Of a stretch of 49,338 bases of DNA, positions 24,001 through 27,000 are shown in pieces. Position 1 is the stretch's first letter. The number at the start of each line of letters is the position of its first letter. Source of the stretch: a virus (taxonomy: Duplodnaviria; Heunggongvirae; Uroviricota; Caudoviricetes). The stretch lies in the IMG/VR virus record IMGVR_UViG_2721755725_000012. One strand, given 5' to 3'. Made by a program: the position numbers.

Positions 24001-27000
24001 TCATCATGATCCCCGCGGCCAGCGTGGACTTCGAGTTTTTCTTGGGGATAAGGATAAAAACTTCCTTGATATGGCGTACACCGGTCTGCGCATCGTAGGA
24101 GCCAAACAGGGCCGCCACCAGGTCAAACACCCACGCTGCACAGGACTCCCCGAATGTCGGGCTACCCGGTGCATCCACAATCCGCAGTTGTTTAAAAATC
24201 GCCAGTGCATGTGCAGCCTGGTCCGGATAAATCGGAGCCGGAATAATCGACAGCCCCTTTTTCAGGCGCTCTGCCCAGTCCGGACATGCCGTGCTCCACA
24301 CAGGTATCATCCGCTTTCCTCATTATCATTATTCACCACCAGGCGGGGTGGTGGTGGCACCGCAAAACGGTTAGCCGCTTTTTTCGCCGCGTCACCTTTT
24401 GCCGATTTTTTACCGGCATCCCCTTTTTTGTGGTGCGTGAATTGCGCCAGCTTATAAGCCGCATCCAGCGCCAGCCTGGGGTCGGTATTAATGTTCTCCA
24501 CCAGAAGACGCCCCATCGCTTTCACCGGATCGGGAAGACCGTCCTCCATATACTCAATACCAGGAGATATCACCACGGGCGGTGGCATCTCCGGATTTGT
24601 TTCGTCCGGCTGTGGTATTGCAGCCGCCTCACGGCGACGGGGTTTATCCTCCGGCTCTGATTTTTTCTGCCGGTAAACAGGAACCTCATCCACCTCCACC
24701 GTCTCGCACTGTTTACGGGCTATAAACGCAAGCACCTCCGGATCTTTTGCCAGCTGCGAGCCTTTAACCCTGGCTGTCTTCGCCGAATAACCGGCGGCAA
24801 GGGCTGACGCTGTTTTGTTTTTCCCGGACATGAGCGCCAGCGCAAATTTTCGTTTTTGCGTTGTCAGCACAGCCTCCTCCCGGGTCCAGAACGCACTCAG
24901 CCGGGTATGGTTCAGCCCATTTTTCCCGGCGTCTCATGCCGCAAATGTTAACTGCTGCCTGGTTAACATTTGCTGAAAAAGCCAGTTAACATTTTTTTCG
25001 CACAACAAACTGAATAATAAAGATAAAAACCGAAAAAATGCCCGGGCAGCCAGTTAACATGTTAACTGGCCTGAAACAGGAATTTTTTCTCTGCATGAGA
25101 CGGGGGGCGGTGTCCGGGGCGATCGTTTTTTTTCGCCGGATGATCCCCCCCCGGGGCGGGTCACAGTCCGATGATATCGTCTGCCCTGCCATGACCTCCG
25201 GACACCTCCGGCAGCGTCGGGTCCGGCATACCACCCGCCGCTTCACGAGCAGACTTTTGTCGATGGCATTCAGTACAGAGGGTCCAGAGATTCGTCTCCT
25301 CATTACCACCACCGAACTGAAGTGCAATTCGGTGATCGAGTTCACTGTCACAGAGGTCAACCACACGACCACAGTGACAGCACTGCCCGGCATCCCTGAG
25401 CCAGATATGACGCTTGAGGGAAACACGTGCACTGCCACTGACACGACGCTGTTCACCCTTCAGAATATTCACCCGCCGGGTGTTCAGAGTTTTGATTCTG
25501 CCCGGTAACGTACGAAGCACAGCCATGTAAAATCCTCGCCATATAGCTTGTCACCAGAGGAAAGAAAATGTCATCGAAAAACCGGCCCCGCAGAACAACA
25601 ACCCGCAACATCCGATTTCCAAACCAGATGATTGAACAAATTAACATCGCTCTTGACCAGAAAGGTTCAGAAAATTTTTCTGCGTGGGTCATTGAATCTT
25701 GCCGCCGGGAGCTGGCAGCAGACATAAAATATGCCCGTCAGTTGACTATAAAAAAGAATGATACACAGTATGCTCTGCGATGGCTGTTCATATAACTATT
25801 TCTTTATATTGCTGAATTTATAAAAACTCACAGACATTAGCTGTATTAATTCCGAATTGAAATAATCAGCCATATAGAATAAAAATAAAGCATAACAATA
25901 ATAATCTTCTACCCAATCAGTACATTACTGCTGTGACTCCAACACGGCAGTTTTTTTATTGAACAGATTCCAGTTTCTTCCACCATCGCACCGGACGGGC
26001 GACCATGAGGGGAGAACGCCGCGCTCCGTTTACGCGGTAAACCCCGGTGTGTATCGTTTTTGATTATCCCCGCACACTCTCGCAGAGGAGTCTCCCTGTC
26101 GGGCTGCGGTCTCTGTTAATGCAGGAATACGGCGACGATACGGCGCATCAGCAAAACTTAGTTCAGGCACTGAGTGCGGATATAGTCCTGTGCCCCTTCC
26201 AGCTGCTTCTGCATTGTCATCAACCGTTCTCTGAGGATGAAATAATCCCGTTCAGCGGTGTCTGCCAGTCGGGGGCCGGTTGCATTATCCACGCCGGAGG
26301 TGCCGGTGGCTTCACGCACGGTACCGGAGCAGGTGGCGTTGATCCGCAGGCGCTTACGACCAGCGGCAACATCAGCACGCAGAGTTTCATTTTCAGCTCT
26401 CGCATCGGCTAACTCCCTCGAGTATTTTGCATCGAGCGCAGCAACATCACGCTGGCGCACCTGCATGTCAGTAATGGTGGCATTCGCCTGTTCCAGCTCT
26501 CTGGCTTTTTTATCGCGCTGCGCTTTGTAGGTGAGCGCGTTGTCACGGTAATGGTTTGTTGCCAGCCACAGCGCACCACAGCCAACCGCCAGGACAATAA
26601 TCACCACACACAGAACACGGTTCATCTCTCTTTCACCCCACCAGTCCCGATAACGTCAGGACTCGCCAGGCGGTGGAAAAGAAAATGGCAACCAGCATGA
26701 CTAAAAATGAAATGCCGACAAGTACACAGAGGCTCTTCACCAGCGTTATGAGTTTATCTGATATCATTAGCCACCCCATCAATCCGCCTTTGTTATTTTC
26801 CCTTTGCCTGTATCAGCCAGGACAAAATCAATCAGCATATTCGCTTCATTTACCAGCGTACGGATTTTTGATACATGCGCGGCTTTAACCTGTTTCCACT
26901 CATTCAGCCCGGTAGCAAACACACTGGCAATGTTTTTATCCCGTTTCATGTCAGCACAAGCCTGGTTGAGTTCTTCCATCACGCTCATTTTACGGGGATT

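Follow-up and report, generated by a model that had tools for sequence, protein, structure and literature searches.

A conserved repeat array beside the cos site of a Shiga toxin-type lambdoid prophage as a probable recognition element of its small terminase

What reads the cluster of short repeats that lies between an HNH endonuclease gene and terS, the gene of the small terminase subunit, in a lambdoid prophage of Escherichia coli? The question comes from IMG/VR record IMGVR_UViG_2721755725_000012 (Caudoviricetes), a stretch of 49,338 nucleotides that was analysed as a whole and is called the window below; it is a lambdoid E. coli prophage of the long-tailed Shiga toxin (Stx) phage type, in which the minus strand encodes the late genes. 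An earlier note on this DNA had described copies of an 11-mer, ATGTTAACTGG, in both orientations where the cohesive end site (cos) was expected, had taken them for the binding site of a phage DNA-binding protein and, from a further copy in the leader upstream of hok, had proposed that the regulation of packaging and of cargo genes may be linked. Comparing the locus with its relatives, we conclude that the five ATGTTAAC cores in this region probably form a recognition array like cosB of phage lambda, with the small terminase TerS as its predicted reader, and that the link to the cargo genes is not supported.

Results

Five conserved cores between HNH and terS

The earlier sequences and coordinates were right, with small corrections. 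Exact copies of ATGTTAACTGG occur four times in the window, at 24982-24992 (-), 25050-25060 (-), 25059-25069 (+) and 37473-37483 (+), where 0.02 would be expected by chance. Three of the four copies reported from the cos region are exact; the remaining one, ATGTTAACTGC (site D in Table 1), has one mismatch, and a fifth, ATGTTAACCAG (site C), had been overlooked. The reported 20-bp palindrome of site A, CCAGTTAACATGTTAACTGG, is perfect and in fact reaches 22 bp (25049-25070). The core 8-mer ATGTTAAC is found six times in the window against an expectation of 1.37, a number that none of 100 shuffled sequences reached, and five of the six cores fall within 125 bp, at 24945-25066. All five lie inside the 290-bp gap between HNH and terS, which agrees with their original placement. 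Sites C and D mirror each other perfectly over 12 nt, as the inverted repeat GCAAATGTTAAC/GTTAACATTTGC, across a gap of 9 nt.

Conservation was studied in 101 distinct cos-to-terS sequences, taken from relatives whose TerS carries the recognition-helix segment KTAR[V/I]. Among them, only 3 of the 38 core positions vary, against 156 of the 269 other positions (Fisher p = 2.7e-9). The three bases that follow the core read TGG, AGG, CAG, CTG, CGG, CAC or ACC and, since these positions 9-11 vary freely, the conserved unit is the 8-mer ATGTTAAC and not the 11-mer. The cores also persist where the surrounding sequence has diverged: in loci L177 and L173, non-core identity is down to 60-63%, while 37 and 36 of the 38 core positions, respectively, are kept. 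The 68-bp spacing from site A to site B is retained in diverged lineages as well. Within the T-tract-rich spacer between these two sites, TTATTCAGTTTGTTG is nearly invariant among the 101 sequences, and ATTCAnnnnGTT is kept in the diverged lineages. At 11 of 13 positions the spacer element ATTCAGTTTGTTG agrees with the IHF consensus WATCAANNNNTTR; the match is weak, and the spacer may bend DNA or bind IHF.

The sites can also change together. A rarer lineage (loci L162, L163, L165, L172, L266 and L267), present in 11 of 5426 E. coli genomes, is marked by the alternative motif ATGTTTAC. In L163, L172 and L266, whose non-core identity to the window is 45-48%, the sites stand at the same coordinates (34, 40, 107-108, 131-132 and 148-149 from the end), and all five read ATGTTTA[C/T]. 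The TerS of this lineage differs from the common form at residue 25 (A/T to E), residue 32 (T to S) and residue 35 (V to C), giving KSARC in place of KTARV, and the neighbouring residues are invariant. A search of IMG/VR with the alternative-lineage TerS brought no further example, all 80 loci being of the common class. In all four specificity classes that we distinguish, the first repeat stands at the same offset, 44-66 bp from a GGACACC anchor.

TerS as the predicted reader

The only Pfam match of the window TerS is to Terminase_2 (PF03592; 34.3 bits, cut-off 26.1). In its AlphaFold model, residues 1-50 have a predicted local distance difference test (pLDDT) score of 92-96, and helices are placed at 4-14, 19-25, 33-41 and 44-56; residues 60-110, considered for a ring-forming central oligomerisation domain, score only 43-58 (mean per 10-residue block). 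With Foldseek, the modelled N-terminal domain aligns to the DNA-binding domain of the SF6 small terminase (4zc3) with a target template-modelling (TM) score of 0.84 and a root-mean-square deviation of 1.6 A over 56 columns, and a profile search with TerS likewise matches 4zc3 (E = 7e-4), 3zqp and 2cmp; to 3zqq, only the N-terminal domain was aligned. According to the model, helix 33-41 is the predicted recognition helix; residue 35 would belong to it, residue 32 would immediately precede it, and residue 25 would lie in the helix before (19-25). Judging from these positions and from the lineage differences, we infer that residues 25, 32 and 35 set the specificity, and TerS appears to be the protein that binds the repeats. 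The earlier suggestion of a binding site for a phage DNA-binding protein is thereby borne out in part: the repeats behave like one, with conserved cores and concerted change, and they point to TerS rather than to the HNH protein or a repressor, which had been the other candidates.

Position of the cut

For the induced Stx1 phage Lys8385Vzw, PhageTerm gave 3' cohesive ends, with CGCCCCCCCT as the cos sequence (PMC7946995). The record of this phage, which is near-identical, terminates in ...GGACACCGCCCCCCCT and opens with CTCACGCAGAGAAAAAATTCC...GCAGTTAACATGTTAACTGG (CTCACGCAGAGAAAAAATTCCCGTTTCAGGGCAGTTAACATGTTAACTGG...), 31 bp before the same palindrome; at the corresponding place, the window reads GGACAC-CGCCCCCCGT-CTCATGCAGAG. 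By homology with these mapped ends, the repeats are indeed near cos, as had been proposed, with 31 bp between the palindrome and the cut. The left end, packaged first, would begin at 25099 and run to lower coordinates, toward terS, and the array, placed by the same transfer, adjoins the nick site on the first-packaged side, beside the terminase genes. The block surrounding the nick site is shared by 20 related Enterobacterales phages with a TerS of only 33-48% identity, by a Salmonella phage and by satellite islands. When phage records were searched by BLAST with the conserved block, none was found to be split there at a record end.

Two further repeats were noticed around the cut. A direct repeat, TCATnCnGnGAAAAAA in phage orientation, at 25083-25098 and 25128-25143, flanks the inferred nick site, its copies being separated by 45 bp. 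Just past site D, the cut-proximal GTCTCATGC recurs in inverted form (24925-39 versus 25093-25107); this inverted copy is absent from L163 and L177.

Satellite islands and distant relatives

Two homologues of TerS, P0063 and P0053 (46-47% identical), are encoded in small integrated E. coli islands (L166-L171 and L265). The island L265, viewed over 20 kb and carrying P0063, holds an integrase, AAA_25 or D5-type replication genes, small open reading frames (ORFs), TerS and a capsid-like gene of 307 aa, and neither TerL nor HNH. Its coordinates are 3446-11944, and 243 sequences, observed on 112 contigs, make up the P0063 cluster. The islands share the cosN block of the phages and, at the same offset from GGACACC, continue with another repeat, AAAGTTACA; their TerS combines a different N-terminal domain with a window-like C-terminus. 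Further copies of AAAGTTACA occur in the disordered linker of the satellite terS (L166:1659-1731, L169:1713), where they are read as (K/A/D)-V-T codons. Much the same is seen in distant phages (L082-L099), in which copies of GTAAAC/GTTTAC at terS +207/+222 fall within the linker and are read as codons for V-N or V-Y.

The islands look like satellites of this phage group of the phage-inducible chromosomal island (PICI) type, and they may already have been catalogued as PICIs. Satellites that carry a cos site and the TerS-S of Staphylococcus aureus pathogenicity islands (SaPIs) offer a comparison (10.1101/2022.09.08.507074): the present islands carry a TerS of their own, with a phage-like C-terminus, a different DNA-binding domain and their own repeat. 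Since they also keep a helper-type cosN block, they combine carrying the helper's cos with encoding their own TerS.

In the 20 Enterobacterales phages with TerS 33-48% identical, the cos block ends in GT(A/T)AAC-(A/G)T-GTTAAC, and the ATG within it is the start of terS (M-L-T). Homology between these distant relatives and the window stops exactly at ATGTTAAC (query positions 1-99). It would therefore seem that about 190 bp, with sites B-D, were gained in the window lineage between the ancestral start of terS and the present one.

Copies of the repeat outside cos

The copy at 37473-37483 does lie beside a TAATGTTAA direct repeat in the hok leader, as the earlier note had said. This leader is matched by the Rfam family sok (RF01794) at 37366-37541 (-) with 119.8 bits against a gathering threshold of 59, and the 11-mer is the 5' arm of a modelled stem. 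Three E. coli chromosomes from unrelated strains were inspected, those of BL21(DE3), S65EC and VCSW8, two of them without this prophage type, and the hokD leader of each has the sequence CCAGTTAACAT; in two plasmid versions, CCAGATAACAT stands instead. The copy belongs to the structured leader of the hok/sok type I toxin-antitoxin family and has no relation to the cos array. One regulator binding both the cos repeats and the hok-leader copy, and so coupling packaging to the cargo module, would account for an exact 11-mer whose expectation is only 0.02 per window. Among phages, however, only the 8-mer is conserved, and one 8-mer outside cos against 1.37 expected in the window is what chance would give; the hok copy is a stem arm of an RNA family, kept in the hokD leaders of all three strains, and the hok leader is far commoner than this cos type (4714 versus 1244 of 5426 complete E. 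coli genomes). Because of the conservation in hokD leaders and the chance-level count, the link is not supported: the copy is coincidental, and a shared regulator has next to no credibility.

The surroundings of the leader have features of their own. An IS3-family element (IS1203/IS629-like) at 36081-37337, with an ALIL frameshift pseudoknot at 36362-36478, has split the hok ORF just a few codons past its start (37338-37365), leaving the sok/hok leader intact and the toxin gene truncated. An AT-rich island at 37929-39564 contains two genes, one for a 365-aa protein matching PADLOC PD-Lambda-2_C (E = 1.4e-40) and a convergent one for a 192-aa protein of the sce7726 family (NCBIfam, E = 1.7e-56; 'cll' in PADLOC); from these matches, the pair is a candidate for anti-phage defence cargo.

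Near-copies of the 11-mer with one mismatch number three outside cos, among them those at 28886 and 44915, where about 0.6 would be expected in the whole window. The one at 44915 falls in the spacer between dicF and dicB. There, between the DicF small RNA (sRNA; 44760-44811, Rfam 76.7 bits) and the start of dicB, a second GTTAAC-NN-GTTAAC pair (GTTAACTGGTTAAC) occupies 44917-44930, with GTTAAT before it; its 8-bp spacing is as in the cos palindrome, the ATG/CAT flanks of the core are missing, and it is probably unrelated. GTTAAC, the HpaI site, occurs 19 times in the whole window against 8.3 expected and, with the five cos copies removed, its count of 14 is still somewhat above expectation.

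Genomic setting

The late genes follow the order Rz-like lysis gene, divergent YlcI/DUF3950 gene, HNH, the 290-bp gap, terS and terL (Table 1). The order HNH-cos-terS-terL agrees with that of HNH-dependent cos phages, and RefSeq has the HNH gene annotated in an E. coli strain that matches the intergenic region with 100% identity. Around cos, the window is 95-99% identical to phages 2851 and BP-4795 and to many Stx1a and Stx2 prophages. The HNH-terS intergenic region was found at 2948 places in 1244 of the 5426 complete genomes, often in multiple copies.

The YlcI/YnfO (DUF3950) gene, possibly of the ribbon-helix-helix type, runs against the late operon; it was called in L173, L176 and L266 and not in L163. 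Upstream of the lysis genes in the direction of late transcription, Rfam matches the sRNA AgvB at 31201-31260 (+), STnc100 at 31262-31470 (-) and two transfer RNAs on the minus strand (31583-31656 and 31740-31812). In PPompW-type prophages (LC567818, LC567822 and others), the IS110-family element ISEc20 is annotated over or adjoining the match to the cos region, which begins at query base 12, inside the C/G run at the start of the HNH-terS gap; this placement of ISEc20 hints at a hot spot for insertion where cos begins to border on its surroundings, at its edge.

Table 1. Features of the cos region and the related copy in the hok leader (window coordinates; distances are from the inferred left end)
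Feature	Coordinates	Strand	Distance	Remarks
Site A	25050-25069	both	31-50 bp	Overlapping inverted cores GTTAACAT/ATGTTAAC; palindrome CCAGTTAACATGTTAACTGG
Site B	24982-24992	-	108-118 bp	ATGTTAACTGG; forward phage orientation
Site C	24959-24969	-	131-141 bp	ATGTTAACCAG; forward phage orientation
Site D	24945-24955	+	145-155 bp	ATGTTAACTGC; inverted relative to B and C
Spacer A-B	24993-25049	-		T-tract-rich; contains conserved ATTCAGTTTGTTG (plus-strand 25003-15)
Start of terS			about 230 bp	
Inferred cosN	25100-25109	-		10-nt 3' cohesive end CGCCCCCCGT; by homology with the mapped ends of Lys8385Vzw
Conserved cos block	25070-25160	-		G-run, TCATCCGGCGAAAAAAAA, CGATCGCCCCGGACACC, overhang, CTCATGCAGAGAAAAAATTCC; kept in relatives
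HNH endonuclease gene	25161-25526	-		Pfam HNH PF01844; directly upstream of cos
terS, small terminase	24307-24870	-		187 aa; GTG start; Pfam Terminase_2 PF03592; proposed reader of the repeats
terL, large terminase	22649-24310	-		Pfam TerL_ATPase and TerL_nuclease
YlcI/YnfO (DUF3950) gene	25568-25795	+		Between the lysis genes and HNH
11-mer copy in hok/sok leader RNA	37473-37483	+		Leader RNA on minus strand; outside the cos array

Discussion

The organization of the locus recalls that of phage lambda, in which cosB consists of the sites R3-I1-R2-R1, I1 being the bending element or IHF site, and is bound by the winged helix-turn-helix of gpNu1, and in which lambda and phage 21 have matched cosB and Nu1 specificities. 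Like cosB, the array has several short repeats that face either way and stand on that side of the nick site where the terminase genes are, spans about 120 bp, includes an A/T-rich spacer that is possibly bent by IHF and is followed by the gene of the small subunit; as in lambda and its relatives, the specificity differs along with the DNA-binding domain of TerS. By analogy with the lambda logic of cosN and cosB, TerL and HNH, which do the cutting, are paired with the invariant block, and TerS with the variable repeats. The differences are equally clear: the ends would be 3' overhangs of 10 nt in an HNH gene context, versus the 5' overhangs of 12 nt in lambda; TerS belongs to Pfam Terminase_2 and is SF6-like, not of the Nu1 family; the motif sequence is unrelated; and the site nearest the cut, only 31 bp away, is a tight pair that makes a palindrome.

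The protein itself is closer to the SF6/SPP1 type. The SF6/SPP1 small terminase G1P reads repeated short boxes that flank the cleavage site, and the modelled N-terminal domain of TerS has the same fold as these proteins (PDB 4zc3, 2cmp and 3zqq) and the same Pfam family. SF6 and SPP1, however, are headful (pac) phages, in contrast to the HNH gene of the window and the defined cohesive ends of its close relative, and similarity is detectable in the N-terminal domain alone, outside which the model has low confidence. The phage of the window would thus resemble this family in how DNA is recognised without being a pac phage. On the other hand, the gene order and the cohesive ends are those of HK97, which has HNH-cos-terS-terL, 10-nt 3' overhangs and a minimal TerS site at +15 to +29, so that in both phages the TerS site, a proposed one in the window, is a few tens of base pairs downstream of the cut (PMC11331095). 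There, TerS reads a single 15-bp site as the DNA threads the tunnel of its ring, with the help of N- and C-terminal arms (PMC11331095), unlike the five helix-turn-helix-type repeats over 125 bp and the different TerS family (PF03592) of the window.

Taken together, these comparisons allow a mechanism to be proposed. During late growth, the N-terminal helix-turn-helix domains of an oligomeric TerS would dock on the pair of cores in the palindrome, at 31-50 bp from what will become the left end, and also on the three further sites at 108-155 bp; the T-tract spacer, possibly with the help of IHF, would allow the DNA between them to bend or wrap. The resulting complex may then bring TerL together with the HNH protein to the invariant block of cosN, where they would nick the strands in a staggered fashion and leave the 10-nt 3' overhang, and packaging would run toward terS, terL and the head genes.

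Could something other than TerS account for the repeats? Conservation and concerted change imply one specific reader without saying which protein it is, and the HNH protein, TerL, a YlcI/DUF3950 protein encoded 400 bp away, a phage repressor or a host factor might each be considered. Two of these were tried as specificity determinants and rejected: the HNH protein of L266 differs from that of the window at only 5 of 121 residues despite the other motif, and TerL, 96% identical in alternative-motif loci, has an identity that does not track the motif. The DUF3950 gene goes without a call in some loci of the same layout, such as L163; a host factor fails to explain differing motifs in phages of one host; and in the satellite that was examined fully, TerS is the sole member of the packaging set and comes with its own repeat type. 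A reader other than TerS is, we think, unlikely. Less likely still is a role of the inverted repeats as hairpins in RNA or single-stranded DNA, for example in the control of terS translation on the late transcript. Sites C and D do pair perfectly, in a stem of 12 bp around a loop of 9 nt, and where the other lineage has its A-to-T change the opposite arm carries the compensating one. Yet the satellites use their motif as tandem direct repeats 12 bp apart, copies occur inside the coding sequence of terS in distant relatives and satellites, the distance between the first site and the cut is constant in all classes, and Rfam gave no match at E <= 1 in the cos region.

The terS start of the 20 distant relatives gives rise to a different thought, namely that the repeats are functionless leftovers of a duplicated ancestral start (ATG TTA AC = M-L-T): in those phages, ATGTTAAC is the start codon of terS at the same distance from the cos block, and the window lineage has about 190 extra base pairs between that position and its present start. 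Leftovers would decay, however, and the cores are far more conserved than their surroundings and change in concert; nor is the short ORF from the palindrome ATG conserved. We consider this explanation very improbable. That small ORF (MLTGCPGIFSVFIFIIQFVVRKKC, 24 aa) has, as we read the aligned sequences, 14 aa in L163 and 5 aa in L173 and was dropped as a gene. A scan of the cos region for promoters and terminators returned only consensus-level hits at the rate of shuffled sequences, with a weak terminator-like hairpin, CCGGGCATTTTTTCGG, in the spacer.

Recognition by TerS is the explanation that we prefer, and several points weigh against it. The position of cos in the window would be that of a related phage, carried over by homology. 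The covariation of motif and TerS rests on about four specificity classes and thus on few independent events; furthermore, less than 250 bp separate the array from the 5' end of terS, and the two would therefore be co-inherited by recombination even without functional coupling. Inverted repeats preserve hairpins as well as protein sites, and the predicted RNA fold of the region is slightly more stable than that of shuffled sequences (z = -2.18, with 3 of 200 shuffles as stable or better). Finally, the IHF-like element is only a weak match to the consensus.

If TerS does read the array, a further reading, which we put forward tentatively as a possibility short of a probable one, is that the variants spell out a code of TerS-DNA recognition. 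Changes at residues 25, 32 and 35 would go with the change from GTTAAC to GTTTAC in every site; a three-way specificity would act on one and the same cut site; the satellites would keep the helper's cosN and use their own TerS and AAAGTTACA as their own packaging address; and, with repeats also lying in terS, the peptide repeats of its linker would be a by-product of the DNA sites.

In the literature searched, a limited collection, we found no description of cosB-type sites in Stx-type phages, and the array is most likely an ordinary kind of element that has not yet been described for this phage group within that literature. How far DNA recognition can be generalised across small-terminase families appears unsettled, the mechanism of HK97 being quite different (PMC11331095), and the natural variants of site and TerS are a ready-made experiment on how helix-turn-helix small terminases read DNA. 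Our analysis also removes a false lead, the supposed connection between packaging and the hok and cargo region. The cos region belongs to many Stx1- and Stx2-converting phages, and knowing its recognition and cut sites tells which DNA such phages, and the satellites that use them, can package, which matters for transduction and for how Shiga-toxin genes spread.

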